A stretch of 63,902 nucleotides of DNA, counting the filler, from Hausera hauseri (lineage: Eukaryota): assembly GCA_046269625.1 (NCBI GenBank). It is 11 parts of 11 records of this genome, joined end to end, with 100 filler letters (N's around TTAATTAATTAA, not from the genome) between each part and the next. Parts side by side here need not be neighbours in the genome. Positions count along the whole stretch, not along the records: positions 45,982 to 51,270 come from JBJURY010289392.1; positions 51,371 to 58,524 come from JBJURY010034780.1; 9 more parts are not named here. One strand, 5' to 3'. Shown here piece after piece: positions 8,872-62,200 of the stretch (position 1 is the stretch's first letter; each line of letters begins with the position of its first letter). The notes under the pieces were generated by a model, which saw only the letters and a program-made list of their open reading frames with translations, ran no database searches and was not told the origin of the DNA. A program made the position numbers and the translations under genes.

Positions 8872-13916
<5,045 letters not shown>

Positions 13917-19563: not shown

Positions 19564-19603
<40 letters not shown>

Positions 19604-30105: not shown

Positions 30106-30114
30106 CTTTAACTT

Positions 30115-30633: not shown

Positions 30634-30661
30634 CAGGAGAACATCACCATGTTGTCTAGGA

Positions 30662-34712: not shown

Positions 34713-34957
34713 CGAAATTTGAAATTTCAAGAAAAATAAAGACATACTGAATTTTGCTTTTATGAAATTTTGATATTGCCACATTGGAATTGCATTTGAA
34801 TATAAATGTTCACAATTTGCCATTTTGACATTATAATAATCTTATCCGTGGATTTAGTTTCCGAACCTATCTCTCGTATTTAAAGCTGGAATTTATTTGT
34901 CAAACTCTCATATGATGGCGGGATAATTCAGCATATATCTTCTACTAAGTCCATCGT

Positions 34958-39189: not shown

Positions 39190-39948
39190 ATGAACAACAC
39201 TCAAGTTCTTGAAGAAGTCATTCAGGCTGCAACGGGCATTGTTAGCAGACAATCGGAAATTGATTTGGACAATTCAGAAGGAAAGTCGGACAAATCAAAC
39301 GGCAATATGGACAATTCAGGAAGGTAACCCGAACAAATCAAAAGGCAATTCGATTTCCAGCAGAAATGAAGAAATTGCTATAATAAAATTGTGAAAAGAT
39401 TTCGCACTGACTTAAGATTCTAGTAATGATTATTTGTCTGACACAAGTTCGATAATAGTCAAGAGAAAGACTAAAAATAAAGCCTTTTAGCGGATGAAGC
39501 AAAGTGCACCAACAAAGATAGAGGAAAACGCAAAGACAATCAAAAAGATGCTAATATGAGATCGGCCATCCTTGGGTAAAGACGTATCGATTGGAACAAC
39601 TGACGAAGGCAATAGAAAAAGCAAACAATACGCAAGAGCGTATTGTCATTACGAAAGCAGTGAAAGGCAAATGGCAGAAGGATTATGACTCACGGAAGAA
39701 AATCGCTTGAGTCTGAAAATGAAGGCCCAAACAGTAGAACTGTACGACCCAATGGATCCTGCACTCCGCATAAATCACGACAAGAGATTTGAAATACAGG
39801 CAAAGCTGCGGCTACCCGAGGATTAAGAGGAAGTCCGAGAACTGAAATCCCAGCTGGTCCAAGCTCAAAGGTAGCTGAAAGAAAAGGTTATTTACACGAA
39901 CGGTTTAATGGTCAAAGTTGAAGAGCAGGTGAAAATAATATTTCGCCA
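39190..39948 (+). pseudogene. Degenerate charged/coiled-coil ORF of unknown family
   Basis: MNNTQVLEEVIQAATG... and later LKMKAQTVELYDPMDP..EEVRELKSQLVQAQ read as protein-like, with interspersed stops. Confidence 0.35.
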
Positions 39949-41120
39949 GTAGGTAGAAGTGAGCTCTCCACCGCACTTCTCTGATTGGTCCGCCAACCAG
40001 TTTTCCCCACCTGATTGGCTATTCTGAACATTTCACTAAAATTTTTTCACGACTTCCGCCTCAGAAAATGAGGTCGAGCAAAGAGGTTCGGACCAGGTGA
40101 TACCACTAACGCGTGACGAGGTGAGCAAAAGTTAACAAAAGTGTGGCTTACAGAAATGTAATGGAGAGGTTCTAGAAGAGAAAGAAGCAAAACAGGAAAT
40201 GCTCCACGTGTAACGCAAAACATGTTTCTAGCACTGAGAAAATGTGTACAATGGCTAAATATATTTTGGCGATTTCAATAGACACTGTCGCCAGTCGGTC
40301 AGACCATGGAAACATGGGAAAAATCGACGGGAAACTTTCAAACTGGTAAAATTTTTCCATGTTCAAGTCTGCCGGTGATGGAAATTGGTCTAATACATTG
40401 CTCATAAGTTGGGAGAAATTTCATATTATAGCCGCCTCACGATCAGATCAATAAATCGGGGTGAAAGTGTAATCGAACGAACGAACGAACAAACCAAAGA
40501 AAAGCGTAATGTTAAAGTCAAAATCATCATAGTAGGTAGAAGTGTTCTCTCCTAACCACTTGCCAAAAAGGGCTCAGATCGAGCTAGAAACCAGTTTTCC
40601 CCACCTATCTTGCAATTCTGAGCATTTCATGTTTTGTAGTCAGAGACCCCCCAGCCGGAAGCACATGTCACATGTTGCACATGTCACCGGCGAAAATCGG
40701 CAGAGCTGGATGAGGCGAGAAAAATTTTCTAGCGCGGCAATAGTCGAAAATATTACTGGGCGGCTCTAGAAGCAAAAGAAGCAAAACAGGAAATGTTTTA
40801 TGAGAAACGAGACATGAGTTACGAATTGCGCAATGTTTGGTGCAAATGTCAAACGAAACGCCTGGGAATCGAAGGAGCACGATTTTAACGTTGTCTGACC
40901 ATGGAAACATGGGGAAAAACTGATGGGAAAATTTCAAACTCTAAAAATTTCACATTGTTCAAGTCTGCTGGTTGTGAAAATGGGATGAGCACGTAACCCA
41001 TCAGTAGCTGAGCATTTCCTATTATAGCCGCTTCACGATTAGACCAATGGATTCTGGTAAAAAATGCAATGAAAAACAAAAAAAAACACAATGTTAAGAA
41101 GTCAAATTCATCATCACCGT
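39949..41120 (-). repeat. Two tandem ~585-595 bp units of the Maverick-associated array (third element copy)
   Basis: GTAGGTAGAAGTG at 39949 and 40532; GACCATGGAAACATGG at 40302 and 40897; homologous to 41373-42185 and to the reverse complement of 57834-58524. Confidence 0.9.
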
Positions 41121-41127
41121 TGTTCCT

Positions 41128-41272
41128 ACGTTCGTTCGTTCGTTCGTTCTTTCGTTCTTTCTTCCGTTCGTTCGTTCGTTCGTGCTTTTGTTTGTTCGTT
41201 CGTTCGTTCGTTTTTTCGTTCGTTCGTTCGTTCGTTCGTTCGTTCGTTCGTTCGTTCGTTCGTTCGTTCGTT
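41128..41272. repeat. (CGTT)n / (GAAC)n microsatellite at the head of the array
   Basis: Directly visible; a short (GAAC)n sits at the equivalent position in the other copy (57800-57820). Confidence 0.92.
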
Positions 41273-41372: not shown

Positions 41373-42185
41373 AATCAGACCATGGGAACATGGGGAAAAA
41401 TCGATGGGAAAATTTCAAACGGGAAAAATTTCCCCTTACACAAGTCAAACGGCAATGGAAATGGGTTGAGCTCATAGCTCATCAGTAGTTGAGCATTTCA
41501 TATTATAGCCACCTTACGATCAGGCCAAAGGATCCAGGTGAAAATGGCAACCAAACGAACAAAGAAAGAGAAAAGACGCATTGTTATAAGTCAAAGTCAA
41601 AATCATATAGTAGGTAGAAGTGTCCGCTCCACCCCCAATCCCACAAAGTGCTCAGATGGACCTCGGACCTAGTTTTCCCAACCTTTCTCGCAATTCTGAG
41701 CATTTCATGTTTTGTGGTCGGAGATCCCCCAGCCGGAAGCATATGTCATATGTCGCACATATCACCGATGGAAATCGGTAGAGCTCGATGAGTGGAGAAA
41801 AATTTTCTAGCGCGGCGAGAGTTGAAAATTTTACTGGGCGGCTCTAGAAGCAAAAGAAGCAAAACAGGAAATGTTTTATGAGAATCCAGACACGAGTTAC
41901 GAATTGCGCAATGTTTGATGCAAATGTCAAACCGATGTCGTGGAATCGAATGCACATAATTTTGACTCGGTCTGACCATGGGAACATTGGGAAAATTGAT
42001 AGGAAAATTTCAAACTGTAAAAAGTTCCCATTGTTCAAGTCTGCTGGTTGTTGAAATGGGTTGAGCACGCAGCCCATCAGTAGTTGACTATTTCATTTTA
42101 TAGCAACCTCACGATCAGACCAATGGATCGGGGTGAAAAATGCAACTAAAGAACGGAAAAACGCATTGTTATAAAGTCAAAATCT
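41373..42185 (-). repeat. ~1.4 tandem ~590-bp units of the Maverick-associated array
   Basis: GACCATGG at 41378 and 41974; CGCATTGTTAT..AAGTCAAA at ~41577 and ~42162. Confidence 0.88.
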
Positions 42186-42327
42186 CTTTTTGTTTTGTAA
42201 AAAGTCGTGTAGAATGAAGACGACGAGCTCATGATTGAGTATTCACAACTCACAAGGAGAAAGATTGTGATGAAAAGTCACACATATCATAACAAAACAA
42301 CAGCAATAAAATAATACACATATATAT

Positions 42328-42707
42328 TTCACAAATGTGATTGAGATGTAAGCCACAATAAACAGTAATGTACACACAGTATAGCCATTGGATATTGATA
42401 ATGAACTCGATTATATTCAATACGGCATGATGATTGCTGTTAAATTTGAGAAACTAAAATCCAAGCCGATCAAATACTCTGATGACGTTGGTCGGATGGT
42501 GGACGTACACAGCAATCCAATGTTTGCCAGGAAACGATGAACTGTGTGTATTGACAATAAAGCCACCGCCTCCATTTTGTCGTAAATCACGCGGCACACG
42601 GTCCAGTGGAAATTTCACGCCCAAGAGCAGTTTTCCGTAGTGACTGAGCTCGGTAGAGCTAAATGTGAATTAAGTATAATAGTAATAGTAGTAATAAATT
42701 ACTTCAT
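42328..42707 (-). pseudogene. Maverick adenain-like cysteine protease with a 44-nt intron (42659-42702)
   Basis: Spliced: MNSTELSHYGKLLLGVKF..PLDRVPRDL..GFIVNTHSSSFPGKHWIAVYV..VFDRLGF*..HYQYPMAILCVHYC (catalytic H, D, Q and C positions present). Confidence 0.85.
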
Positions 42708-42745
42708 AGTATGACGACGAAGAAGTGAGGCACAGCAGATTTTAT

Positions 42746-43946
42746 TTATACAATGACGTTTCCGTTTTTCGTTATTTCAACCTAGGCATCAAATACACCG
42801 TAAATGTACATCACGGTGGACTGATCCAACACTTTAGCAAAGTGAACCTCTAGTCTCAGGTTTCCCTGCTGAGGTAGTTGAGTCCGTTCAACGTAATAAT
42901 CTGGATCCAGGACAAAGTAGAAGAATGGATAGGTGGACTTGAATAAATCCATCTATATGCCATTATTGACACTTTTGTTTAACAAACCAATTTTGCGCAC
43001 AATAGATTGCATATATGTGCAAACATAATCGCCGGTCTCGAAATCCTACTTGTATGTCTCAACAAAATCCGCATTCCGACCAAAACTGACGTAATTACCA
43101 TTGCTATGCGTAAACGTTCCCGAATCGGTCGTATAACTGCCCACTTGTTGGACAGTCGTTTGAAATGTAACGAGCACAAGTTTCGGCAATCGCATGTCGC
43201 CAAACAGGGCATCTTTTCAAAAAAGTAGTTGAACCTTTGGGTATGGTGTAAAAGACGAGTTTTGTGCGTTGTAATGGGTAACAGGCATTTTGTGTTTCCA
43301 AGCCCAATCGCTGTCCCATGAGCACAGATGGTTCTACCTTTACCCGTCGTACGTATAATCGTGCCTTGGTAATTTTCAGTATGGATTTAAGCTGTGCAAC
43401 TGCGGTTTTCAAACAAAAGACATTTCTGCTTCGTTTGAGCCGACTCATGGCTTTAACACCGGGCAGTAGGTATTTCGGCTGATCGAAAGAGTCAAAGTAC
43501 AGCGGTCCACACATGGTAAGCGGTTTTGATTCGGCCACCCATGTCTGACGGTTTGCCGCTGTGGTATCGTATCCACTGTAGTTCAGAGCCGTTTCAATGA
43601 GTGCTTTGATACTGTATAGACTAGTGTTGCCTTCGATTTTGACGCTGTTCAGAGTCAGTGAAGCCTCTTGGAACAGTGTGAGGAAAAGGTAAATGTTCGG
43701 TGTGACAGTGTCTATTGCAGCGAGAACTGTTTATGCAGCCTTTTTAACCATGACTTTTTCACAGATTAACGTATCGTTCAAATCGAGGTATTCATTATCC
43801 GATTCCATTACATTAAATTGAATGTCAATGTTATCATCCGTTGAAACCGAATCAACGGGGTACATTTCTTTAAATGCCGAATTTTCAATAACAACTTGTG
43901 GCGCGGCTATGTCGAATATACACAATTCAAATTTTGCAGATGCCAT
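42746..43946 (-). pseudogene. Maverick major capsid protein (double jelly-roll, PY/hexon-like)
   Basis: MASAKFELCIFD, EYLDLNDT, KALIETALNYS, DQPKYLLPGV, LYVRRVKV, YPLQRT, QGNLRLEVHFAK; stops and frameshifts. Confidence 0.92.
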
Positions 43947-43965
43947 TTGTTTATCTGTCAATGAA

Positions 43966-44328
43966 TCAATGGAAAATCGTACGACGACGACTTTTGTTTA
44001 TAGCTAATGAACTCGATGATGCTCTACGGCGTTTTCTTATAAAGCCACTGCCAGCGAATTGTTTTTTGACTGATTCAAGGACTCCCGGTACGGCGCTTTT
44101 TATTTCGGATAAGGCATGTTTATTCAGTGATGGTAAAATCGATTTGTTTTCATATAGTACGTCCTGTGTTGTTTTTGCTGCCACGGCACCGATACGCTTC
44201 AACACCGGAAATGATAAACGTGCCAATATACGCAACCATCCAGAGGCGTACTGTTTACCAACAAAATATGGCAGTTCACAGCCCTATTGCGGTTTACTGT
44301 AAATGGATGCGATTTCGGAATCAATCAT
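43966..44328 (-). pseudogene. Maverick core/DNA-binding structural protein (adenovirus core-protein-like), 120 aa
   Basis: LPYFVGKQYASGWLRILARLSFPVLKRIG..DVLY..QFAGSGFIRKRRR..RRRTIFH; lies between penton and MCP; one internal stop. Confidence 0.75.
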
Positions 44329-45246
44329 GTTGTTGTTGGATTCGACGGAAATGAAGAGTTTGACTGGTTGTGGTACAGTACAGAAATTCAATAATGAAGT
44401 CCGCGTCATATCGGATATTCACTTCAACATTTTTTATAGATGTAGATGCCACGGGTAGGTGCATTGGATTATCGAGCTTGACAGTAACATTGTCGCCGGC
44501 AGTATACTTGCTGCTTTCCAGATAAATTGCACAGTATCATGGCGAAAGCTTTTTCCAGTGTAATTTTGACAATATCTTTAGCCAGATCAAATTTAATCAA
44601 CCCATTTGCATCTGACTCGAAAACTTTACATATCTCCTTAAATATTTAATCTGAAGAAGAAAAGTTTTGGCAGAGATATTCTACAGATTCGCAATAGCCA
44701 TTGTCTCCAATCGATACGTATGACGTTGACACCATTTTAGTTGTATAGGTAAATTTTACTGTTGTCTGTTAATGTACGGGACTTAATCTAGGAGCAGCTA
44801 CATATTCACTTTTAAGTTGTTGACCTTTGTATTCTGTATTTTTGAGTCCAAATTTCTGTGCCATATCAGATAACTCAAAGGTAACAGCAAAATTAAAATC
44901 TGCCATAAATGTAAGTTTTGGTCTAAAATAAAAACACCGATTTTGCCGTGTGAACCGTAATCTGCTTCGGTCGTGCAAATACCCGATTTTCCGACTGTTA
45001 TTTTATTGACAGTAATTGTTTGAGGACAAGAATGTGTTTTGGTTTCAGTAACAGTCTTGTACGTTATTTTCATCCTACTTTCAATGTCACCGGTGCGTAG
45101 GGAATGTTAAATTCCGTCATTGCAACCTCCCATTTTTCAGCAGATAAATCCAAAGGATTGTTCCGAACTATAACGTATTTACTGGCTGATTTGTTCGGAC
45201 GAGTCGTCGGATAACTGTTGCTCGGCAACACCATGTAAATACTCAT
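44321..45246 (-). pseudogene. Maverick minor capsid protein (penton/PX) paralog 2
   Basis: MSIYMVLPSNS..NPLDLSAEKWEVAMTEF N-terminus; DNPM.LPV..LFISVE/HFRR-type C-terminus; internal deletion relative to 54576-55609. Confidence 0.85.
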
Positions 45247-45288
45247 TATCTCGATGATAGTGATGATAATGATGACGCAGTTTGCTTA

Positions 45289-45881
45289 TTATCGACGTCG
45301 AAAATGCAACATCAAATGTGTCGTTGATCTAAACAGAAATTTAATGGGTTCTCAAAATTCATTAAGCATATACATGGAAATACTGTGCACAATATTGTGA
45401 AACAATGATAAGTACATGGGTCTAAGCATATTAATGCGAACAGTTTCACCCGTTGTTTTGTACGTGTCAGAATCCAGTTCGATGGAAGCTAGCAGTTGTT
45501 TACGTTCTATACCAATGAGTATGGATTCTGTTAAGTCCATTAAAATGTTTAATCCACGAAATGCTCCATAGAGTTGTGGTTTGTATTTAGCAACAATAGG
45601 TCGTCCAACAATGTTTTGATAGAATTCGCGTTGTGAGAAACCCATATTCCGAGCCAATAATTCATCAAAGGAAATATACGTAACATTGCCATGTAGTATA
45701 ATCAAAATATGACCATCAGCGTTTATTTCCCATGTCTTTACGGCTAATGTAGCCGTTTTCTTGACATATTCACACAATTCCGGTTCCGTTTCCATTAATA
45801 CATCGTGCGGTATAATATAATAGCGGAAGACTGATTTTGACTTAGTCCACTTTACTATAATATCGGATTCCGCATTGGATG
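45289..45881 (-). pseudogene. Maverick minor capsid protein (penton/PX) paralog 1, 5'-truncated by the contig end
   Basis: LARNMGF, NILMDLTESILIG..KQLLASI, LRPMYLSL, PIKF..THLMLHFRRR*. Confidence 0.85.
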
Positions 45882-46329: not shown

Positions 46330-49300
46330 CTCCAAAACAAGATTCGGTCGTCGTCTTGCTGACTGTGCACAACCTGTCTCTCCCAATCTTCCTTGCAGAG
46401 AGTTCTTCCTCGATAAAACTAATTCAAGCCGCACTTGGCTACAATTTCATTTACAATGACTAAAAGCCAATCATATTACCGATTCTTTTTTGCGAGACAA
46501 CAGCTTGTTACTTCTTTTTCCAGCTAACATCAAGTATCAAATCAATAATCTTACTGATATCCTTACTTCGCCAATACTATACGACATGCTTTATGAGTCT
46601 GTCCTTCATATTACCGATTCACCGATTGATAATATAATACAGAAGTACTTTAAGAAACACGCTATAGGCAACAAAAAACCTTCTGACTTTCTGCAGACCT
46701 CTATTTCACATCTAAGTGCTCTTGGCGTTACCCCCACCAACAATGCGGATTTATTCGTCGTTATTTCCTTTCCTCGTTACCCATTTCCATCAGAGCTCTC
46801 CTTACTGTCGTAGACGACTCGACGGCGATTGAAAAACTTGCCCTATTGGCTGATAAAAGTTTCGAAATCTTGTGAACCAACAACTCACAACCCGTAGCTG
46901 CAGCAACCACGCATACCTCATCTCACGTAGACACGATTGTTTTCGCACAGCAACTACAATTAATGCAGAAACAATACGATACTCTACAGCATTCAATCTC
47001 CGTCATCACGGCTCAACTAAGTAATCTGTCTACGTCTCGGTGAGGCCAAATTTACTCATCGCGTTAGTGTAGCCTCTCCAGGCACTCATTTCGTTCCATA
47101 TCTCCTGGCGGACGAATGATTTGTTTTTATCACAAGAAATTTCGTAGAAATGCAGAAAAATGACTTTGGGGTTGTAGATATTATGACGAGCGATTCGCGG
47201 TGGACAGCCCTATCTGTATTTACCACACAAAATTCCACTCTAGACAGATCGTATGTTCCGGGATGTAAACATTACAAAAACAACTTCAGTTTTTCTTCAT
47301 CTTCTTCTCCTCCTCCTTCTGCCTACCAGTCATCTTCTTTCCCTACACAATCTTCAAAAAACTAAAAAGGCCGCCAGATGTAACGGCACATTCTGGCATA
47401 GGCAATACTGCTTAGTCTTCTGGCCGCCTTAACACCGCCTCCGCAGTTTTTCTGTTAAAAGCTACAGTGTTCTCTAGCAGTGCTCCACATATCGATTTTC
47501 TCATCGACTCAGGAGCTGCCTTTTCACTCCTCCCTTTGTCCTTCGTCTCTACATCAACGAAAGTTTTTTCACCTCCGCTTTTCATCGCCAGCAATCAAAC
47601 TTTGCGAATCGCAGATACAACGGAACTGGTTTTTACATTCTCAAACTTACCAGGCAAGTTTGTCTGGAAATTCCACGTGGCTAACATTAAATCGCCAATA
47701 ATCGGCTCAGACTTTTTGGCTGCACACGACCTGCTAGTTGACTGCAAGTATGGTTGTTTGCTACGTAGAGACTCCGTCGTGAACGTTAACAACTGTCTAA
47801 CAGACAGCGCAACAGAACAATCGATTGCAAACTCACACTTGAATTTGGCAAATTGCTCATCTGTTGTTAACGACACATCTAGTAGTTTATCTATTTCCTC
47901 AATTACACCCCAAACACCGAAGTCGATTTTAAAACAATCGGTTAAACCGAATGTTGACAACGGCAAAGTCGTTCGTTCTTCGCCAATCACAGTCACCGCT
48001 TCCTCTGATAATACGCCTCAATCATTTTTTTCACTAGATTCCAATCTCAAATTCCACATCAATTCCTCTTGTCCTTGCATACTAAAAAAAGACCCTAGCT
48101 TTAAACCCCTGTCAGCAACTTATAACCACATCGTCACCCAACACCAAAGACTTATCAGACAAAAGGTGAGATTATCATCGCCCCGTAGACGAAAAGCCGT
48201 GGAATTAGAGTTTAATGAACTCGAAAAATCTGGTATCATTCGGAGATCCAAATCACCATGGGCTTCACCATTACATATAGTGGCAAAAAAGGACGGTACT
48301 TTTCGACCATGTGGAGACTACCGTCTAGTAAACAATTTAACCATCATGAATGCTTACCATTACCGCTCGTAAAAGACATCCTGCACAGTCTTAACAACAC
48401 CAATACCTATTCCACAATAGATCTGCACAAAGCTTGCCATCAAATCCCCGTTGCACCCGATGACGTTCCAAATAGTGCTGTCATCACTCCATTTGTCCTT
48501 TACGAATACATGTTTATGCCATTCGGTTTACGTAACGCAGCCCAAACTTTCCAACGCCACATCGACACTGTTCTCTCAGGCCTTGATTTTGCTCATCCTT
48601 ACATCGATGACATATTAGTTGCCTCCAAATCTGTGAAACAACACCATGAACACCTCCAAATTATTTTTCACAGACTACATCATAGTAACTTACAAGTTAA
48701 TTTCTCCAAGTGTAATTTTTTTCAGAAACGTGTCAATTTCTTAGGCCACATTTTCACTCCTTACGGCCACTTTCCACAACCTGATCGACTACAGCAACTA
48801 AAAAACGTAACACTACCAACGACCACTACAGATATGAGAAATTTTCTTGGAACACTAAATTTTGTCCATAAATACATACCGCATTGCTCTGAGCTTACGG
48901 CACCTTTCGCACACATCTCATCTGGAAAGAAAAGACAGTTAATCCAATGGACTCCCGATTTAGTCACCAAATTCGACCACTTACGCGAAGGCCTTAAAAC
49001 CGTCAAAATATTGGCCTACCCAAAATCCGACGCGGAGATGATACTTACCATCGATGCCTCTTCCACAGCTACTGGTTCAATACTACACCAAGTTTCCAAC
49101 GACGTCGACGAACCTTTCGAATTTTACTCTCGAAAACTTACATAACCAGAAAGCCAATATTCTACATTTGATCGTGAGCTACTAGCCATAATTCTGGCAG
49201 TAAAACATTTCAAGCATCTCCTCCTCTCTCGCCCATTTGCCATCTAAAGAGATCGCAAGCCTCTGCTACACATCATGTCACTAAAACAGCAATCACTAAG

Positions 49301-51199
49301 GCAGAAACGACAGATATCGTACCTATCTACATTTTGTTTTGTCATAAAGCATATTTCAGGCACGGAGAATTTGGTCGCGAATTTCCTGTCACGGTCGATC
49401 GGCTCAATTACGGTTAAACTAATATTTTCTACCGAAATTCTAAAGTTCAACCAACCGTCTGCCGATATTCTTAGCACTTTCAAATCCTTCGAAATCATTG
49501 ATGGCATTGCATACGACACATCTAACCCCGGTAATAAAAAAATCATTCTCGCCCCTTCTTTGCAGAAACCAGCTTTTCTTCACACGTATTCACTTCATCA
49601 CCCAGGCTCGAAAGCCACGTTTTGCTTGCTCCAACGTCATATAGTTTGGCCATCAATGCGCACAGATGTACAGGGTTGGGTTAAGGAATGCGTCGCCTGT
49701 CAAAAATACAAAGTCAACAAACATCTTAAACCGCCGCCTTACCATTTCCCATGTACATTACGTTTTCATACCGTCCATCTTGATCTCGTCGGACCTTTAC
49801 TTTCCGATAACGGGTATCAACATATTCTCACTATGATGGATCGTGATTCTTGTTGGCCTGAAGCCGTTCCCCTCCGCTCAACAAACACCGATTCAGTAGC
49901 AGACGCCTTCATCAAAATTTTGATTAGTGGTTTTGGATCCCCACGGCATATCATAAGGAACCCAGGTCCACAGTTCGAATCGGAACTTTTCAAATCGCTT
50001 GTTAAACGCTTGGGAATATCGCATTTTTATACAACACCGTACCATCCACAAGCAAATGGCCTCCTTGAAAGATTCCATCGAACTATAAAAATTTCTTTAA
50101 AAATCCTAGCAGACAATCATCGTAATTGGATGTCCATCCTGCCATTTGTTCTACTCGGTTAGCGCGATACCCCTTCCACCATCACGGGTTGTGCTCCAGC
50201 CGAGGCACTTTTTGGGACTCCAATGCGGGCTCTGTTCGAACTTTCCGACCTTGACGACAATCCGACAGACAAAAACATTCGCGCAGCACAGTCGTACTTT
50301 GTTGAGGTCAACTTAGACTCATTCTGCCGCTTATTTAACAATAAAATATCGTACATACCGAAGGATTTATACTCAGCCAAGTTTGTATGGCTGAAGGATC
50401 AATCACCTTCAGGCTTTGGACCTCAATATGTTGGTCCATACAAACTACTTCACCTCTCATCTCATACAGCTACCATCTTACGCCAAGAAAAACCCTACAA
50501 TGTTTACTTTTCAAACCTTAAGCCCGCTTTCTTCGTTGATGACAATCCGGATGCCGATTCTACCTCCAACCCCAATTTAACTCTCGCTCCTTCCACTCCT
50601 TTCTCAGACTTTCTTCACGATTTCGCTCTGTTACAACAACCACTCTTCTCTCACACTAAATCATCCTCAACTTCCTCACCGCTTACTGAATCTACATCGC
50701 TTACTCCGTTTTTTCCGCTCGTATCTTTTCCCTCTCTTTCACCATCCCCACCACCTTCAGTTTCTTCGCCTCTCTTGTCTGATTTATTCCCTCCACCATC
50801 TTCAACGTTTTCACCTCAAGCAACACAACACAGTGAATCAGAAAACCCTACAAAACGTCCACCACAAAATATCGTCCAACAATTGAGCACAAACCAACCA
50901 AATAGGACACGCAGAGTGGCATTCAGTACCTATATCAGGGAAAAATCCGTAGACAAAACACAACGCCTCATACACACCAAAACGCAATATAAACCAACCA
51001 ATTTTAGAGTTTCGCCTCCTTCTGTTTCACCCTACAGTTTCTTTTCTGCCACAGGGGGGAGGTGATGTAGTGCCACGGTCTAAGACATGGCTCTCCATTT
51101 CTAGCAATAGAGTCACCGTTTGGTCTATATTTTGTTTAACAGACGAACAGCGCACAGTAGTGTCAAATAAAATCAATATTAGTATTTGGCTACTCACCA
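46330..51199 (+). mobile_element. Gypsy LTR retrotransposon relic, copy D (gag, -1 frameshift site, protease, RT, RNase H, integrase, tail, PPT, 3' LTR at 51066-51199)
   Basis: FLIDSGAAFSLLP, WASPLHIVAKKDGTFRPCGDYR, YIDD, TIDASSTATG, HHPG..CVACQ, PYHPQANGLLERFH; PPT AGGGGGGAGGTGA; LTR TG..CA with AATAAA. Confidence 0.95.
47356..47365 (+). promoter_or_regulatory. -1 ribosomal frameshift slippery site A_AAA_AAC plus gag stop
   Basis: The -1 frame from 47356 is the frame of the protease ORF at 47467; the same heptamer plus TGA occurs in copy C (18138-18147, minus strand). Confidence 0.75.
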
Positions 51200-51372
51200 G
51201 ACTACCAATTATTCTGTTATTTAAAATTTTACCGCCTAGTACGTAATCATCACTAAAAAACCTAGAGTTTNNNNNNNNNNNNNNNNNNNNNNNNNNNNNN
51301 NNNNNNNNNNNNNNTTAATTAATTAANNNNNNNNNNNNNNNNNNNNNNNNNNNNNNNNNNNNNNNNNNNNTA

Positions 51373-51832
51373 ATGGTAACTGATGAGTTTGATGAGAACT
51401 GGTCAGATAGATTACGCAACCGTGACGTTATTGCCATCGACAATTTATTTTATCTAGCAGCGAAACAATCGGACTTCAACAACCTATTCACGAAGAGTGA
51501 ATGGCACCGTAATGTGAGTGTTATTTTTATTACGCAAAAACATGTTCCATCAGGGCGGACAGCATTGAACAAGAAATCTAAACGTACACTATTTGGTGTT
51601 GTTCGAAAATTCCCGTGATCAGATTATCATTGATTATGTTGCACAACATTCATTTCCTCACAACCGAGCCTACTTAATAGATGCATATTATGATGCTACG
51701 ATGGAGCCACACGGATACTTGTTCATCGACTTTACGCAACAGTATCCCGATGACATGCGTGTACGAACAGACATTTTCAATCAGAAAGGTGGTGTATGTG
51801 TCTATAAGCAAATTCAAAAATCGGCGACATGA
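51373..51832 (+). pseudogene. Maverick packaging ATPase (A32/FtsK-like), C-terminal part, frameshifted
   Basis: VIAIDNL (Walker B), NLFTKSEWHRNVSVIFITQ, LVLFENSRD, AYYDATMEPHGYLFIDF..MRVRTDIF. Confidence 0.9.
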
Positions 51833-52029
51833 TTGCGATAAAAATAAAGAATTTCCAAAAAACGATTGTTAAACATAAACAATCTACTACCAAGCGGGTG
51901 TCCGGCGGCAAGAAACGTGTATCAAAACAAAGTTCCACTACAGTCAAGCGATTAATCAATTCTGTGTTTCGTCGAACAACAACATCAGCACCTAGACGCC
52001 AATTACCTTCAAAGTGGCAACGGTTATAA
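51829..52029 (+). CDS. Small K/R-rich hypothetical viral protein (66 aa)
   Basis: Intact ORF overlapping the ATPase stop (ATGA); very basic; contains VSGG. Confidence 0.5.
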   Translation: MIAIKIKNFQKTIVKHKQSTTKRVSGGKKRVSKQSSTTVKRLINSVFRRTTTSAPRRQLPSKWQRL

Positions 52030-52059
52030 ACAACTACGTCTAATGATCAATACAAAAGC

Positions 52060-52380
52060 ATGCGATACAAACGTAGTCAGCTGTACTTTATTGCTTTGCT
52101 CAAGACACCTACTAGATATAAGCGAAACATGTTACGATCATTCCCGCAATTTGTAGTAGACGATTTGTTGAAAATTTTGTACAATATCGTTGTGGGTCAC
52201 GTTGTCATTGGACGTGGAAAGCGCAATATACTAAAGTATCGAAAACGACTCATTGATTTAGCCAACGCCCGTAGAAAACGACTGAAACAAGAGGTCATGT
52301 ACCAGCAAGACGGCGTATTCCTTGGTGCAATTCTACCCATTGTCACGTCATTACTGGGTGAACTCATTGGTTCTGCATAA
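52060..52380 (+). CDS. Maverick small structural protein with a C-terminal amphipathic helix (pVI/cupiennin-like), 106 aa
   Basis: ..LLKILYNIVVGHV..YRKRLIDLA..QQDGVFLGAILPIVTSLLGELIG resembles the QxGGFL..LP family found in Polintons. Confidence 0.7.
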   Translation: MRYKRSQLYFIALLKTPTRYKRNMLRSFPQFVVDDLLKILYNIVVGHVVIGRGKRNILKYRKRLIDLANARRKRLKQEVMYQQDGVFLGAILPIVTSLLGELIGSA

Positions 52381-52518
52381 TAGTATAAGCAATAACGGTA
52401 AGTATATAATGATTCGGCGCATGATTTTTATCTTTCTGTCCCAGTTTACCGAATCTTTCATTTATGATTCGTCCTAATTGTTGTAATGCAAGCAAAACTG
52501 ACACCATCGACGGCAATA

Positions 52519-53490
52519 ATGGGCGATGTGTGGTTCGATCGGCATCATTTCGTCGGTTATACTGGCGTCGACAAACTGACAAAGACTGTCTAACAAAGTC
52601 GGCAACATAGCCAACGTTGGTTCGAGAAACAGCTAACATACAGCCTACACAAACCGATAAGAAGCCGGTTTCCAACTCGTGCATACCATGCTGACGATGT
52701 AAATAACATTTGACAAATAGATGTGATGGAAATTATTCCGTATGACAGCATCAACGATTGGTATCAGTACGTGCTGACATGAGTTGATGTGTTTAGTCGT
52801 TTTGCACGTGCAATTGCCGTAAAATCTAAATCCGGTAAAGAGATGGCCGATGCTGTCCAGACGCTGATACAACAACAACAACCGAATCATTTACAAACGG
52901 ATTTGGGTAAGGAATTCTACAACGCCCACGTTGCGGTGTAAACCACTACTCGCAGTTTTCCCAATATAAGGCGGCACTCATTGAACAATTTAATCGAACA
53001 TTGCGTGGTCGCCTAAACAAATTCTTTAAGAAGCAAAGCAACAAACGTAGGGCAAATGTACTGCCGTGGCATCAATGGATTACGGCCGATGGATGTAATC
53101 GATGAATTGGACATGTGACTTTATCAAAACCGACGACGACGACCAACTAAACGTCGTCCCAAGTATAAAATCGGTGATTATGTACGTATTTTAAAAATAA
53201 GCACGACGCCATTCATTAAGAACTTTAATCAAAACTGGGGCGACGAAGATTTCCACATTTCTGCAATCAACACTAAACATATACCTGTCATGTACGTTTT
53301 AGAGGATGAAAATGGTGAGGAAATATGCGGTAAATTTTCCGAACAGGAATTGCAGGTACTGCCCGAGAAACATGATGTATACCGTATACAGAAAATTATA
53401 CGTTCAGGTGGCAAAGGTTGGAATAAACAATATCTCGTCAAGTGGCACGGATACATTACAAAGAGCTGAGTATTTTCATCGCAGATTTAA
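52519..53490 (+). pseudogene. Maverick retroviral-like integrase with C-terminal chromodomain
   Basis: YTGVDKL, TYSLHKPIRSRFPTR, QIDVME, VDVFSRFA, LQTDLGKEFYN, EQFNRTLR, KYKIGDYVRI, NWGDEDF, YRIQKII..YLVKWHGY; stops and deletions. Confidence 0.93.
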
Positions 53491-54536
53491 TGATGATAAT
53501 TTATTTGGTACTTGATAGTAACAGATCATTATCACAACATGACTACGACAATGACGTCAATACCTCTAAACAGTTTACCATGCACTTGGACCAACCGATC
53601 GATTTACGCTACAGAGACTGGGAAATGGCTTTGACGGAATTCACTTTTACATTTTCACCAATGATAATACGTCAGAACAGTGGTAATTACTTTACCCGAA
53701 AAGAAACGTACCCTAATTTAAGTCGTTTTCGGACAATCCGACACAATAACCGATATACTCTTCGCAACGATTTGCGAAAACATTTCACAGTTCATGCTTA
53801 TTTTTCAAACTACCGTATGAATCTAATGCATCGAAATCCCATGGAAATGCAGTTTATTTCTATAGATGATGCTTAGGCATGGGGGTTTTAATCAGTCAAT
53901 GTACACTCAAAACATCTACGGCTAGGTGGAAATGTTATAATTAGTGAAAAATTGGACCTTTCATCTGATGTGGAATCTAAGTCGGAATCAGTCTTCCGCT
54001 CATATATTATACTACACAATTTATTAATGGAAACGGAACGGGATTTGTAAGAGTACATCAAAAAAACGGCTACATTAGCCGTAAAGACATGTGAAATAAA
54101 CGCAGATAGTTATATTTCGATTATACTACATGACAATGTTACATATTTTGTCTTTGATGCATTATTGGCTCGAAATCTGGGTTTTTCACAACGTAAAGTC
54201 TATGAAAACATTGTTGGACGATCTATTGTCGCCAAATACAAACCACAACTCTATGGAGCATTTCACCAAATCAATATTTTAACGGACTTAACCGAATTCG
54301 AACTCGTTGGTGGAGAACGTAAACAACTGCTGGCTTCTATCGAACTGGATTCTAACACGTACAAAACATCGGGTGAAACTTTCCGCGTTAATATGCTCAG
54401 ACTCCTGTACTTATCATTGTCTCACAATATTGTGCACAATATTTCCGTGTATATGTTTGATGAATTTTGGGAACCCATTAAATTTCTGTTTGGGTCAACG
54501 ACACATTTGACGTTGCATTTTTGACATCGTCTATAA
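53490..54536 (+). pseudogene. Maverick minor capsid protein (penton/PX) paralog 1
   Basis: MIIYLVLDSN..FTMHLDQPIDL..WEMALTEF; INILTDLTEFELVGG..QLLASI..YLSL..PIKF..TLHF*HR. Confidence 0.87.
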
Positions 54537-54575
54537 TAATCAAACTTAATAATCATCATTGACATAATTGTGAAC

Positions 54576-55609
54576 ATGAGTATTTACATGGTGCTGCCGA
54601 GCAACAGTTGTCCGACGACTCGTCCTAACAATTCAGCCAGTGAATACGTTGTAGACTGGAACAATCCTTTGTATTTATCTGCTGGAAAATGTGAGATTGC
54701 ACTGACGGAATTTAACTTTCCCTACGCACCGGTGACATTGAAGGGTACTATGAAAATAATGTACAATAAGACTGTTACTGAAATCAAAACACATTCTTGT
54801 TATCTGACACTTACTAACAATAAAATAACAGTTGGAGAATCGGTCACTTTCACGACCGAAGCAAATTACGGTTTATACGGCAAGATCGGTGTTTTTATTT
54901 TAGATCAAAACTTACATTTTATGGAAGATTTAGAATTCAAAAATACAGAGTACAAAAGTAAGCATATTAAAAGTGAATATGTAGTTAGTCCTAGATTAGA
55001 TCCCGTATATTACCAGACAACGGTGAAATTTACCTATACAACAGAAAGAATATCAACGTCATACGTATCAATTGGCGACAATGTCTATTGTAAATTTGTA
55101 GCACAGCTCAGTCAACATTTTTCTTCAAATCAAAAGTACAAGGCGATATTTAAAGCTTTCGAGTCAGATAAAAATGGCTACATTAAATTTGAACTGGCTA
55201 AGGATATTGTTGACATTTCGTTGGACGAAGCTTTGGCCATGGTACTGGGTTTTGAAAAACAGCAGTTTGATTGAAGATGGTGGCGGCACATGTTGCAACA
55301 CTCAAACCCAAACTGAAAAGTGGACTAATTCAAACATGCATTTACGTGAACGTCACCGAACCGATTTTCGTCGGTGGAGTACGTGTACGGCTAGTCCGTG
55401 CAATTTATCTGGAAAGCAGCAAGTATACTGCCAGCGACAATGTCACCGTCAAGCTCGATAATCCAATGTACCTAACTGTCGCATCTACATCTATAAACAT
55501 TGTTAAAGTGAATATCCGATGTGACGCGGGCTACCTTATTCAATTTCCGTACGGTACCACAACCAGTCTAACTCTTCATTTCCGTCGAACCCAACAACAA
55601 CATAATTGA
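54576..55609 (+). pseudogene. Maverick minor capsid protein (penton/PX) paralog 2 (frameshift near 55271)
   Basis: MSIYMVLPSNS..NNSASEY..NPLYL..EIALTEFNFP; LAMVLGF; IYVNVTEPIFVGG..LVRAI..NPMYLTV..IQFPYGTTTSLTLHFRR. Confidence 0.9.
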
Positions 55610-55964
55610 TTCCAAAATCGTTTCCATTTACAGTAAACCGCAGCAAGGCAATGAACTGCCGTATTTCATTGGTAAACCGTATGGCTCTGGTTGGTTGCGT
55701 ACATTGACACATTTAGCATTTCCTGTGTTGAAGCGTATCGGAGCCGTAGCGGAAAAAACAGCATAGGACGTACTTTATGGAAACAAATCGATTTTACTAT
55801 AACAGAAGGAACACGACTTGTCAGAAATAAAAAGCGCTGCACCGGAAGTTGTATAATCCGTTAAAAAACCATTCGCTGGCAGTGGCTTGATGAGAAAACG
55901 CCATAGAGCATCGTCGAGCTCATCAGCTATAAACGTACGTCGTCGTCGTACGATTTTCGATTGA
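55602..55964 (+). pseudogene. Maverick core/DNA-binding structural protein (start codon mutated ATG>ATA)
   Basis: Same length and sequence pattern as 43966-44328; YGSGWLR, FAGSGLMRKR, RRRRTIFD. Confidence 0.75.
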
Positions 55965-55983
55965 TTGATTGCCAAATAGATAA

Positions 55984-57195
55984 ATGGCATTTGCAAAATC
56001 TGAATTATGTATATTTGACAAAGACACACCACACGTTTTTATTGACAATGTAGCATTTAAAGAAATCAACCCCGTTGATTTGATTTCAACGGACGATAAT
56101 ATTGACATTCAATTTAACATTATGACATCGGACAATGAATAACTGCAATTGAACAATACGCTACTCTACTCGTCAACGGTTCTCACTGCAACGGACACTG
56201 TTACACCGGCCAATTACTTTTTCCTCACACTGTTCCGACAGGCTTCACTGACTCTAAACAGTGTCAAAATCGAAGGCAACACCAATCTGTCCAGAATCAA
56301 AGCACTCATTGAAACGGCTCTAAATTACAGCACTGACACGAAAACGACTCATTTGACGAAAACCATCGGATACGACACCACAGCGGCAAACCGTCAGGTA
56401 TGCGTGGCAGAATCAAAAGCACTTACAATGTGTGGACCTCTGTACTTTGACTTTTTCGATCAGCCCAAATACCTACTGCCTGGTGTTAAAGCCATGATTC
56501 GGATCAAATAAAGCGACAATGTCTTTTGTTTGAAAACCGCCGTTGCAAATCTCAAACCCATACTGAAAATTACCGAGACACAAATATACGTACGTCAAGT
56601 AAAGGTAGAACCATCTGTGCTTATGGGACATCGATTGGGCTTGGAAACGCAAAATGCCTGTTACCCGCTACAATGCACAGAACTTGTCTTTTACATCATA
56701 CCGAAAGGTTCGACAACGTTTTACAAGGAATCTCTGTTTGGCGACATGCGATTGCCAAAATTTGTGCTCGTTACATTTCAAACGACTGTTTAACAAACGG
56801 CAAGTTATACCACCGATTCGGAGACGTTTACCCATAGTAATGTGAATTAAATTAGTTTGGGCCGGAATGCGAATTTCGTTGAGACGTACAAACAAGACTT
56901 TGAATATAATGATTATGTTTGCACATATATGCAATCTATTGTGCGCAACATGGGTTTTCTGAACAAAAATGTTAATAATGGAATATCGATGGATTTGTTC
57001 AAGTCCACTCATTCATTCTTCACCTTTGCCCTGGCTCCCGATTATAACATTGAACAGACTCAGCTTCCTCAGCAAGGAAACCTGAGACAGAAGGTTCACT
57101 TTGCTAAAGCGTTGGAGCAGTCTACAGTGATGTGCATTTACCGTATATTTGATGCCGATGTTCAAATAACGAAAACCAAAACCGTCAGTGTATAA
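55984..57195 (+). pseudogene. Maverick major capsid protein, 403 codons in one frame with four in-frame stops
   Basis: MAFAKSELCIFD, TLFRQASLTLNS, KALIETALNYS, FFDQPKYLLPGV, YVRQVKV, RLPKFVLV, FTFALAPD, QGNLR..HFAKAL. Confidence 0.94.
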
Positions 57196-57239
57196 ATAAA
57201 ATTCGCTGTGTCTCACATTTTCTTCTTCGTCGTCGTAAT

Positions 57240-57638
57240 ATGAAGTAATTTATTACTATTACTATTACACTTAATTCACATTTAGCTCCATCGATCTCAG
57301 TCATTAGGAAAAACGGCTTTGGGGCGCGAAATTTTGTGGCATGTTTCTTTTGGACTGTGCTACGTGATTTACGACAAACTGGCGGCGATGGCTTTATTGT
57401 CAATACACACGCTTCATCGTTGCCGAGCAAACATTGGATTGCTGTGTTCGTCTACCATCCGACCAACGTCGTCACAGCATTCGATCCGATCGGATTTTAT
57501 TATCCGCCATCGTTAGTTTCTCAAATTGAACCACAATCATAATGTATTGAATATAATGGTTTTCATTATCAACATCCAATGGCTATACTGTATGGACATT
57601 ACTGCTTATTGTCGCTTACATTACAATCACTTTTGTGA
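57240..57638 (+). pseudogene. Maverick adenain-like cysteine protease with a 41-nt intron (57245-57285)
   Basis: ATG-AA|gtaatt..tttag|C gives MNSIDLSH; KFCGMF; FIVNTHASSLPSKHWIAVFV..AFDPIG..HYQHPMAILYGHYC (catalytic Cys changed to Tyr in this copy). Confidence 0.87.
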
Positions 57639-57833
57639 AATATATGTGTATTATTTTATTGTTTTTGTTTTGTATACCAAAGAGAGAACAAATCATGAGA
57701 AATAATAATATGATATGCTACAATCATTCTCCTTGTGAGTAGTAATACTCAATTATGAGCTCATCGTACAAAATAAAATTTACACACGACTTTGTACAAA
57801 ACGAACGAACGAACGAACAAACGCATTTACAAC

Positions 57834-58524
57834 GATGATGATTTTTACTTTTTAACAATGCGTTTTTTTGTTCGTTGCATTTTTCACCCGATCCATTGGT
57901 CTTATCGTGAGGCGGCTATAATAAGAAATGCTCAGTTACTGATGGGCTACGTACTCAACCCATTTCCACAGCCATCAGACTTTAACAGTGAGAAATTTAT
58001 ATAGTTTGAAAATTTCCCATCAAATTTTCTCCATGTTTCCATGGTCAGATAACGTAGAAATTGTGCGCATTCGATTCAAGGACATCGGTTTGACATTTGC
58101 ACCGAACATTGCATAACTCGTAACTCGTGTCTTGTTTCTCATAAAACATTTGCTGTTTTGCTTCTTTTGTTTCTGGCTCCTCCCAGTAAAATTTTGGACT
58201 CTCACCTCGCTATAAAATTTTTCTCTACTCATCAAGCACTAAGGATTTCCATCGGTGACATGTGCGACACATGATATGTGATTCCGGCTGGGGGGGGGCT
58301 TCCGAATTCGAGACATGAAATGCTGAGAACTGCGAGATAGGTGAGGAAAACTTGATCGGAGGTCGATCTAAGCACTTTTTGGGAAGTGAGGACAAAATGA
58401 CACTTCTAACTACTACATGATGATTTTGACTTTTTAACAATGCGTTTGTTTGCTCGTTCGTCCCATTGCATTTTTCACCCCGATCCATTGGTCTAATCGT
58501 GAGGTGGCTATAAAATAAAATCTT
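57834..58524 (+). repeat. Tandem ~582-bp units downstream of the Maverick protease (1 complete plus the start of a 2nd)
   Basis: GATGATTTT.ACTTTTTAACAATGCGTTT...CCGATCCATTGGTCT.ATCGTGAGG.GGCTATAA recurs, with its ATG at 57858 and 58440. Confidence 0.9.
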
Positions 58525-58847
58525 NNNNNNNNNNNNNNNNNNNNNNNNNNNNNNNNNNNNNNNNNNNNTTAATTAATTAANNNNNNNNNNNNNNNNNNNN
58601 NNNNNNNNNNNNNNNNNNNNNNNNAAAAATTTTTTACGCGCCAAATTCAAATTTTTACACGTACCTAAAATCCATACAGTACGCGTGCTTGTGTGTATCC
58701 AATTTCTGACTGTGTGTCTCCCATCTCCGCCCTATTAATCGTGCGTGCGTGTGTCGTTTTTTCTACCCCATGAATCATCCGCGAACCAAACATTTCCTTC
58801 CTTCTCGGGGGGGGGGTCTGATCTGGTGCGCTCCTATGTACCTACTA

Positions 58848-58993
58848 TTTTGAACTTCCCACAATGTCGATGATAGGATTCTGTCGCCAGATTCTATTAA
58901 ATCATACGTTGTCCATAGATCTTCGTCATTTTCTGGTATCAGTGTGACTTTTCCATTTTTATTCTTATCGATATATTTATTAACGCGCTTCAT
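58848..58993 (-). pseudogene. PELO: Pelota/Dom34 N-terminal fragment (first exon or decayed copy)
   Basis: MKRVNKYIDKNKNGKVTLIPENDEDLWTTYDLIESGDRILSSTLWEVQ aligns by eye to the pelota N-terminus (MKLV.K.I.K...G.VTL.PE..EDMW..YNL...GD....ST.RKVQ). Confidence 0.75.
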
Positions 58994-59219
58994 AGCTTCT
59001 GTTTCACAAATCTTACAAAAGAAATCTCTCTTCAAATATTAAGCAGTTTAACTTGTGTTGAAAAAAATGACGTTCAACAATTGAAATTTAAAACATAAAC
59101 ATTTTCTATTTTTTTAACGACCAAAAATTAGATTGAGTAAATTTTCAGAGGAAACACAATCAAAAACATACTCATAACTTCTTGCAAGATAATTGAAGGC
59201 TATAAAATAAAAGTCAAAA

Positions 59220-62200
59220 AATTGAAGTAGAAATTGGAATTGTATTAGGCGAAAGAGTAGAAATAGAAAATGAAACAGAGGTAGCGGTAAAGATAGGAAG
59301 AGAGATAGGAATAGAAGCAGAAGATGTTGAAAATGATGAAGCAGAATTAAGGGCAGAAGGAGGAGGTGGAACAGGTGTAGCAGCAGATATAGGAACAGCA
59401 GGAAGTGCAGGAGTGAGAAAAGATGTTGATATACCGATTGGTGAAGTGTCGTCGACGAAGAAGGAGAACTTTAAGTTGGTAATTTGCAGTGTAGGTTCTT
59501 TGCCGTCTTTAGAGATAATAGCGTTCTACAAATGCAGTTGTACCAGTTTATAGGGCCCTAGATACCGCGGCTGGAAACCACACGGCGATTGATTTTTTAG
59601 CCATACAAATTTTGCCGAATACAAGTCTTCAGGTAAATATGTTTCGTCTTTATGAAGTAACCTGCAAAACGAATCTTTAATGACCGTAACGAAGTGATTT
59701 TTTGCCGCCCGTATCGTTTCATCTGTAGGAGTGTTGTTTTGGGTAATTAGTTCGAATAATGATCGTACAAGAGCTCCGAATAAGGCTTCAGTAGGTGCGC
59801 ATCTCGTAGAAGTAGACGGAATGTTCCGCCAGCCAAGCAGAACAAACGGAATAAGATTTGTCCAACTAGTGTTGTACTCTGCAAGAATTCTTAGTGACGT
59901 TTTCAATGTTCGGTGGAAACGTTCTAAAAGTCCATTCGATTGGGGGTCATAAGGCGCTGTATGTATGTGATGGATCCCCAGTCGGTTAACAAGGGATCTG
60001 AACAGGTTGGATTCAAACTGTGGACCCTGGTCTGTGATGATGAAGCGAGGTGATCAAACCTGCTAATCCATGTACGAATAAAAACATCAGCTATAGTGTC
60101 GATATTTGTGCTCCGCAGAGGGATGGCTTCTTGCCATCGCGAGGAACGGTACATCGTTGTGAGAATGAATTGATGACCGCTGTCTGGAGGAAGAGGGCCG
60201 ACAATGTCAATATGCATGGATTCGAAATACAATGTGCAGGGAAAGTGGAACAGTGGTGGCTTTAAATGCTTAGTTGTTTTGTATTTTTGGCAAGTTACAC
60301 ACTCCTTAACCCGTGTCTGCACATCAAAACGCATTGACGGTGGAGCAGACGAAAAGTGGCTTTAGCACCGGGATGATGTAGCTAATGTACACTGTTAAAC
60401 GCATGCCTTTGCAAAGGTGGTGCAAGAATTATTGCGGAATGACCTGGTTTGGAAGTGTCTAAAGCCATGCCGTCAACAATTATGCATCACTTAAAAGAAT
60501 GAAGCATGTCCTGAGGTGGCTGGTTCTGTTGAAATTGTACTTGTGTAAAGATTGGTGAAAAATTAATCGAACCAACCGACCTATATAAAAAGTCGACAAG
60601 CAAATTATTAACTCCGTTAATATATTTTATGTCGAAGGAAATGTCGATAAGTATGACATCTGTCGTTCTTGGTGTGTGGAAGGATGTTTCATAGCCATGA
60701 TGTTAAGTAATGGTTTGTGATCGGTTTGTATAGTAAAATAACAAGCGACAAGTTGATGGGAGAAATGGTTTAAAGCTAGAATGGTGGCCAATGATTCTCG
60801 ATCTAACGCTGAATATCTAGTTTCAGGGGATGTTAGCTTACGAGAGAAAAATTCTAGCAGTTGATTTTTTCCTTTGTTGATTTGCTGGAGTACAGCTCCT
60901 ACTGAAGTCGTTGAAGCGTCTGAAGTAAGGATGAGTTCCGCATAAGGCTTGGGGAAAGCGAGAATGTCGACGGTCTTAATTCCTTCGCGTAGCTTATCAT
61001 ACTTATCTACCAATTCAGGTGTCCACTGGATTGACTGATGTTTTTTGCCACCGCTTAAGTTTGTAAATGTTGCTGTCAGTTCGGAACAATGCGGTACATA
61101 TTTATGTAAAAAGTGTAGCGTACCAAGGTAGCTTCGCATTTCAGTGGTCGTACGTGGTAACTGGATATTCTTAAGAGCTTCAACTCGGTCTGGTTGAGGA
61201 GAGTGACCGTCTGGTGAAATAACGTGGCCCAAAAAGTTGGTGCGTTTTTTGAAGAAATGGCATTTGTCAAAATTAAATAGGAGATTATGGTGGTTAAAGC
61301 GTTGGAATGTTTCGCGATGGTGTTCCTCATGTTGTTTGACCGAAGAGGAAACGATTGGAATATCATCAATGTAAGAGGCGCAAAAGGAAAATCTGAGAGA
61401 ATTGAGTCAATATGTCGCTGAAACGTCTGTGCGGCATTTCGCAAACCGAACGGCATAAACAGGTACTTGTAGAGGCCAAAAGGAGTACTGACAACGGTTT
61501 TTTCTATGTCTTCAAGTGCTACCGGTATTTGGTGGTATGCTTTGGCCAAATCTATGGTCGAATAAATGGTAGTTGAATTAAGACGATGCAGGATGTCCTT
61601 GATGAGTGGCTAGGGGTACGTATCCATGATTGTCAAGTTGTTCGACAGGAGGTAGTCACCTCATGGTCTAAAAGTACCGTCCTTTTTTGTACAACGTGTA
61701 AAGGTGACGACCAAGGAGATTTGGAACGGCGTACAATGCGGGAGTGTTTTAGTTCGCAAAATTCGGCTTTTGCGGCCTGTCTACGACGAGGTGACAATGG
61801 TCGCACCTTTTGACGTATTGGTCGTTGATGTTGTGTAATTATGTGATGTGTAGTGCTGTTTGTAGAGGTAAACGAACGATCTTTTTTAAGTACGCGTGGA
61901 CATCATGTGGTAACAAATTGCTGTAAAGTTGTAGGCAACTGTGAGAGATTCGGTGATGATGGTGAAGCAGCTGAGTAGTAGCGAATGCAATTTGTGAATT
62001 GTTTTGTGATGTGAATTCGAGTGGTATTTGGTGTAAGATAGTCAAATTGAAAATGGTGTTGGATAAAATGATTTCGTCAAGTGAATGAACACTGATGGCA
62101 GTACCACAATTATCGACATCGAATCTCGATCGAATATTAATATTATTATTCAAAAATTTACGAATTGAATTACTGTCATGGAAATTCGAATTATTTATTG

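Follow-up and report, generated by a model that had tools for sequence, protein, structure and literature searches.

The DNA analysed here (the window) is a stretch of 63,902 nucleotides from the Hausera hauseri assembly GCA_046269625.1, made of 11 contigs joined via linkers of Ns. The element under study is one entire contig, JBJURY010034780.1 (window positions 51371-58524, 7,154 bp). Its plus strand carries, in this order, a packaging ATPase, a small basic ORF, PZ, an integrase with a chromodomain, penton 1, penton 2, PW, the major capsid protein (MCP) and a protease. We consider it likely that this contig (copy 1) is a decayed copy of a high-copy Maverick/Polinton family, probably from a flatworm, and that this family belongs to a clade with a predicted spliced protease mRNA. 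Copy 1 has the following features:

51371..51832, plus strand: A32-type packaging ATPase, 3' part; the contig starts within the gene, which has one frameshift and one stop
51829..52029, plus strand: small basic ORF at the PM position; open, 66 aa, 29% K+R
52060..52380, plus strand: PZ, a pVI-like protein; open, 106 aa, 31-49% identity to relatives
52416..53490, plus strand: rve integrase with a C-terminal chromodomain-like part; broken, start approximate
53490..54524, plus strand: penton 1 (minor capsid protein), of the two paralogues the one that has diverged more; three stops
54576..55609, plus strand: penton 2; frameshift near 55272
55606..55964, plus strand: PW, a core protein; expected start codon absent, internal stops
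55984..57195, plus strand: double jelly-roll MCP; four in-frame stops
57240..57650, plus strand: adenain-like protease; 5-nt exon 1 (57240-57244) and an exon 2 that starts at 57286 and has an approximate 3' end; broken
57245..57285, plus strand: predicted GT-AG phase-2 intron of 41 nt after protease codon 2 (44 nt at the same position in copy 2)
57835..58414, plus strand: repeat unit 1 of terminal type (580 bp), with a short (AACG)n stretch before it and a Maverick-like end motif at its close
58415..58524, plus strand: first part of repeat unit 2, which the end of the contig truncates

A Pfam scan of 25 Maverick pieces recognised only the rve domain, on one integrase piece (E 3.7e-5), and gene identities were therefore taken from relatives; an EF-hand match on one piece lay below the cut-off and was rejected as spurious. 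These relatives come from a metagenome scan that yielded 46 related loci (numbered with the prefix L), assigned to a near and a far clade, the longer of which carry ATPase, PZ, integrase, penton, PW, MCP and protease in the same order as the window. The ATPase shares 52-60% identity with that of L013 (E 4e-46), which itself matches Pox_A32. The integrase is 42% identical to that of L001 (E 2e-77, with 6 stop marks in the tblastn alignment), and the L013 integrase consists of rve and Chromo domains. Penton 1, which has a long branch in the penton tree, shows 26% identity to the L001 penton over 338 aa (E 5e-18), and penton 2 shows 43-48% identity to the ends of the same protein. PW is 44% identical to L001 PW (E 1e-20, 2 stops). 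The protease, found directly after the MCP gene, is 43% identical to the intronless protease of L005 (E 1.6e-16), whose own match to Peptidase_C5 is weak and below the cut-off (E 0.013). A basic ORF occurs at the equivalent place in all six near-clade loci examined and in neither of the two far-clade gaps examined, and the relatives of PZ have a hydrophobic C-terminal tail behind a Gly-Gly site. PZ and PW may be the equivalents of the small adintovirus proteins GasderminX and Cupiennin, to judge by motifs and position. Homology to relatives thus bears out the gene set, the order and the single-strand packing announced by the original prediction, and the overlapping stop and start codons that it described were found at the ATPase/basic ORF and integrase/penton 1 junctions.

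The MCP frame, read with X at its four stops, retrieved 57 homologues among 1,212 candidates, none of which carries an informative name; the best of them, an intact protein, is 79% identical and the others reach at most 53%. Over all sources, intact proteins without a name share 79-82% identity with the MCP and all others about 45-55%, and the family may well be unnamed, Repbase lying outside this comparison. A search of solved structures by sequence with the MCP gave no match. The model of the intact protein P0002 (79% identical to the MCP, pLDDT 85.8) matches the capsid proteins of PBCV-1, an iridovirus, Sputnik and mavirus (E 1e-17 to 6e-13), and the first Atlas match (0.98) has the DJR-like family PF21738 in 30% of its members. 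In the same way, the top six matches of the L001 penton model are to the mavirus penton (E 4e-9, TM 0.35), and both window penton genes are homologous to the L001 penton. The jelly-roll calls made earlier for MCP and penton are thus supported by the structure matches of relatives' models. With the expected features of ATPase, integrase, penton, MCP and protease each present, the element is very probably a Maverick/Polinton, as had been proposed. A search of 2.9 million viral contigs gave 155 pattern matches, none confirmed as relatives.

For the polymerase, tblastn with the long ORFs of three relatives found no match in the window, where the contig starts inside the ATPase gene; these ORFs (of L004, L013 and L019) are only likely PolB, Pfam having given Endonuclease_7 alone. 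An ORF of 1,111 aa at 31377 was rejected as pPolB, since it is the SMG1 kinase. A gene for a TATA-binding protein is present in some of the relatives (Pfam TBP, E about 1e-17; L004 2175-2618, L013 2420-2866, L032 6502-6966), and ORFs for a ubiquitin-conjugating enzyme, a RING finger protein and a glycosyl transferase 4 were seen close to related elements (L013 225-719, L003 1710-2168, L015 2-511).

The spliced protease of the original prediction gains weight from the comparison, the predicted intron being held in both window copies and in 15 related loci. The pattern consists of ATG-NN, then GTRA, A+T-rich bases (74-92% A+T) and AG, followed by the protease body, for a total of 37-47 nt with lengths covering all three remainders modulo 3. 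The intron stands at the same place in 15 of the 17 assessable near-clade loci; the 15 represent 10 distinct elements by our grouping, truncated loci being uncounted and L003 being cut just after the donor. L005 and L043, from the same clade, are intronless. Among 16 assessable far-clade loci, 14 have a direct protease start and two gave no call, so that the intron occurs in none of the 14 called. Once the intron is removed, a script places a conserved Gly at codon 20 in 12 of the 15 loci, the position that it has in L005; inspection by eye puts it there in L010 and L011 too, and in L021 it is at codon 18. Retention would lead to a stop within three codons in all cases (17/17), and 12 of the 15 intron loci lack any other in-frame ATG. 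L012 and L013 are near-identical, yet their introns differ by 2 nt.

An MCP tree was built from 91 rows, after removal of 6 short loci and 3 duplicates. All 16 intron rows belong to one clade of 67 rows (SH-aLRT 100), and the intron label clustered in none of 500 shuffles. Two changes, one gain and one loss, are needed on this tree. Judged from these patterns, a single gain of the intron and constitutive splicing are most likely: most donors have the strong consensus GTAAGT and the length resembles that of four short candidate host introns (38-53 nt), which together suggest constitutive splicing.

Two further copies were found by self-comparison of the window. Copy 2 shares 80-86% nucleotide identity with copy 1 in blocks, and copy 3 was detected through a match of the downstream region near 40300-41155:

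41373..45881, minus strand: copy 2, decayed, from the 3' part of penton 1 through repeat unit 2; protease intron at 42702-42659
39948..41272, minus strand: copy 3, right end only, with (AACG)n, unit 1 and unit 2; likely terminus at 39948, then unrelated DNA

The claim that the element is multicopy is confirmed by these copies and by 53,571 matching contigs in one public sequencing run. This run (X1, share 0.20) was the only one found with the stretch, and no RNA run was listed. Its contigs cover all 30 bins (4,323 at at least 99% identity, 13,086 at 95-99%, 22,663 at 90-95% and 13,499 below) and show a large diverged family, not copy number.

The morphogenesis module was initially called full, which does not hold in the sense of intact. 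Stops or frameshifts affect seven genes of copy 1, namely the ATPase, the integrase, both pentons (three stops in penton 1), PW (two), the MCP (four) and the protease, which leaves the basic ORF and PZ as the two open frames. The core genes of an intact Maverick are open and intronless (PMC8097293), and copy 1 has seven broken genes and a predicted intron in one of them. An alternative genetic code was rejected as the explanation of the four MCP stops, which face three different residues in copy 2 by eye. Between the two copies, dN/dS is about 1 or slightly above for PW and penton 2 (1.07-1.35) and lower for penton 1 (0.57) and the MCP (0.33), a pattern that is, to judge from these ratios, one of neutral decay over older selection. 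Synonymous distance is larger for the MCP (pS 0.28) than for PW and the pentons (0.09-0.18), which hints at recombination between sub-families. Both copies are fossils of a high-copy family and make no particle.

The host was sought in the other contigs of the window. The SMG1 gene (a single long kinase exon, 31113-35618) is 57% identical to that of Schmidtea over 1,202 aa, against 28-30% for other animals aligning over that length; for the first 300 aa, the identity to Schmidtea reaches 74% and that to others at most 51%. A CHD3/4 (Mi-2) gene (8823-14496) has short introns (38-53 nt in the four candidates). A quick tree that contained no planarians, none of which appeared among the 120 CHD matches listed, groups it with flatworms (99), outside trematodes plus cestodes (82). 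Furthermore, the trinucleotide composition of the Maverick copies correlates with that of the SMG1 contig (0.81-0.82) and the CHD contig (0.74-0.79), and hardly with that of two fish-like contigs (-0.10 to 0.13; -0.06 and -0.10 for copy 1). These comparisons point to a host that is likely a flatworm and, with somewhat less assurance, a planarian-like one. This flatworm may still be a parasite of fish, as first put forward, and no observation speaks for a transfer between host and parasite. Composition ties the copies to the flatworm contigs, not to fish, and SMG1 is closest to that of the free-living planarian Schmidtea. The two contigs of fish-like composition occupy 18738-31012, and the second, poor in CpG (0.37), contains a C2H2 zinc-finger exon. 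Elsewhere in the window, BEL/Pao remains lie at 35774-37504, and pieces of Gypsy-type retrotransposons, interrelated (70-76% alike) and with strong GC skew, at 1-8722, 14597-18637, 45982-51270 and 58625-63902.

Twin pentons had been advanced as a distinctive trait. Two penton genes are indeed present in the window, but they are not unique: of the 14 related loci that reach from integrase to PW, one, L013, likewise carries a pair, and the truncated L012 is the same element. The divergent penton is the second gene in L013 and the first in the window, and the MCPs of the two families fall in different subclades. This suggests that the twin pentons of the window and of L013 probably arose by separate duplications; the penton tree itself is mostly unresolved, with 1 of 13 branches starred.

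The repeat array noticed earlier does consist of tandem units, but of two units of about 585 bp rather than a long array. Units measure 580-587 bp and each closes with an identical 14-base motif, which has 5 matches in the window (0.28 expected); 4 of these matches close a unit. In a comparison of the three copies, unit 1 shows 83% similarity, and its similarity to the complete unit 2 is about 70%. That complete unit ends at 39948, with unrelated DNA after it. The pair of units probably arose when the terminal repeat was duplicated in tandem, an event older than the three copies. Mavericks are expected to end in terminal inverted repeats with AG..CT ends, and only the right end lies within the window; the published Maverick end motif (ACT)2 is close to that of the units, as far as the account in PMC8097293 goes. 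Tandem Repeats Finder (TRF) at a period of up to 500 found no tandem array, an array of RNA genes was discarded as there was no Rfam match in the window, and a search for the unit in the 46 related loci gave only two matches of 29-30 nt. Beside the likely terminus, a broken coiled-coil-like ORF occupies 39200-39950.

In working ancestors, the integrase would have inserted the element, the ATPase would have packaged its DNA, the capsid receiving it being of double jelly-roll type with pentons at the vertices, and cleavage of the core proteins PZ and PW at Gly-Gly sites would have fallen to the protease. These steps are drawn from family knowledge and motifs, the Gly-Gly motifs being conserved in relatives. 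Each of the packed genes probably had a transcript of its own, driven by a TATA-like box inside the final part of the preceding gene. ATAAAY occurs 20-55 nt before the ATG of the ATPase in 7/7 loci, PZ in 6/6, the MCP in 7/10 and the protease in 6/9, for a background of about 9%. The C-termini of PW and MCP (L001-L032) encode a conserved box of this kind; its distance to the start that follows is 29-55 nt in near-clade loci and 70-86 nt in most far-clade ones. The host spliceosome would then remove the 37-47-nt intron after codon 2 of the protease, a retained intron leading to a stop within three codons.

Several points weigh against this interpretation. The folds belong to models of relatives and not to the window proteins, and the penton TM-scores are low (0.35). 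The window contains no pPolB, left end or target-site duplication, and L004, L013 and L019 carry their likely polymerase downstream of the protease, where the window family ends. Splicing of the protease is a prediction from the sequence pattern, 3 of the 15 intron loci have an in-frame upstream ATG, and the MCP tree comes from a quick search without bootstrap. ATAAAY is weak before the integrase (2/9), penton (3/8) and PW (4/10), precedes only 3 of 7 window starts in the 20-55 nt range, and this range was picked after inspection of the data. Finally, the host link is one of co-assembly and composition, copy 1 being on a contig without host gene, and run X1 may be the source sample.

The element could also be an ordinary member of a planarian Polinton family already catalogued, whose intron and twin pentons are annotated in Repbase or a supplement. 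The available portions of the literature report Polintons in planarian genomes (PMC8532177), a Maverick expansion in Dugesia (bioRxiv 2025.12.11.693146) and insertions of Orthopolintovirales in flatworms (bioRxiv 2025.04.19.649669). However, none of the 57 MCP homologues is informatively named, and the descriptions at hand give intronless core genes for vertebrate Mavericks (PMC8097293) and for nematode ones, in which only cargo genes have introns (bioRxiv 2022.07.12.499685, 2023.08.22.554363). We regard this explanation as possible but doubtful. No report of a protease intron or of twin pentons was found in the literature searched, Repbase, most subscription papers and bioRxiv supplements being outside this search; Repbase or these supplements may already describe either trait.

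Another explanation makes the protease intron a regulated switch, its retention giving a transposon mode and its removal in some cells or stages allowing virion maturation. The tissue-specific splicing of the P-element transposase is an analogue. Elements whose MCPs are only about 50% identical share the intron position, an unspliced intron would bring an immediate stop in every case, no further intron is needed to explain the other core ORFs of related loci, and planarian Polintons are, according to the part of PMC8532177 consulted, desilenced in differentiation. However, any GTRA donor in phase 2 brings the stop with it, the mostly GTAAGT donors and host-like length suggest constitutive splicing, and the intron has been lost in L005/L043. 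No finding favours a splice switch over plain retention of a harmless intron, and we judge such a switch improbable. We hold equally low the wider proposal of a large unnamed invertebrate Maverick clade whose once-gained and long-kept protease intron acts as a cell-type or stage switch, with nested TATA boxes and, in some relatives, an own TATA-binding protein. If true, a switch would put virion maturation under the host spliceosome, which would decide between copying in place and mature particles. It is very unlikely that the element is an active endogenous virus that forms virions in a fish parasite and has been transferred between parasite and host: fish-like contigs occur in the same window, the CHD contig groups with parasitic flatworms in the tree without planarians and intact MCP relatives exist at 79-82%, but both copies are broken, SMG1 is closest to that of Schmidtea, the composition of copy 1 follows the SMG1 contig (0.81) and not the fish-like contigs (-0.06 and -0.10), and no relative was confirmed among the viral contigs.

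The preferred reading thus remains a decayed Maverick/Polinton of a probable flatworm, from a clade with a protease intron that is predicted and most likely constitutively spliced. The clade-wide predicted intron is the main new trait in relation to the literature searched; the twin pentons and doubled end are minor novelties, the gene set and order are known, and decayed copies are ordinary. The lineage, initially called undescribed, may well be unnamed, the MCP homologues having no informative names, but its order is already published and is found in many metagenome relatives, and twin pentons also exist elsewhere. Since core genes have been described as intronless and annotated through ORF finding, a protease with a five-base first exon would be mis-started or missed, and intact elements of the intron clade could be scored as defective. 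The intron could also serve as a clade marker and would indicate nuclear, Pol II-type expression of a late gene. At the RNA level, spliced protease mRNA would tell cheaply if the maturation programme is switched on and in which places, a matter relevant to the question whether animal Mavericks form virions.

Among known systems, the planarian Polintons/Mavericks of Schmidtea and Dugesia share the likely host group and show large expansions; in the sources available, they are known as repeat-class counts, not gene by gene. Nematode Mavericks/Polintons share core gene classes with the window in the accounts consulted (bioRxiv 2022.07.12.499685, 2023.08.22.554363). Their polymerase holds an HNH-type nuclease domain, comparable to the Endonuclease_7 match in the long ORFs of L004, L013 and L019, and a fusogen gene is described for them, none being seen in the window. 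The virion module of Beta (Terrapene-class) adintoviruses (Starrett et al. 2021, PMC8502044) has hexon, penton, adenain, ATPase and integrase in common with the window; the main text of that article makes no mention of splicing or of a protease intron, and one supplementary text file contains none of the flatworm terms searched for. Vertebrate Mavericks (Barreat and Katzourakis 2021, PMC8097293) share the gene order in the published description, with atp-pm-pz, where pm lies between atp and pz, and int-mcp-pw-MCP-pro. The window element resembles the Xenopus tropicalis Maverick in having both modules on one strand, and most vertebrate loci (96%) are degraded, like the window copies. Besides their hosts, vertebrates instead of a likely flatworm, the difference lies in the genes: intact vertebrate Mavericks are intronless and are described with one minor capsid gene, whereas the window element has a predicted protease intron, two pentons and a doubled terminal unit.

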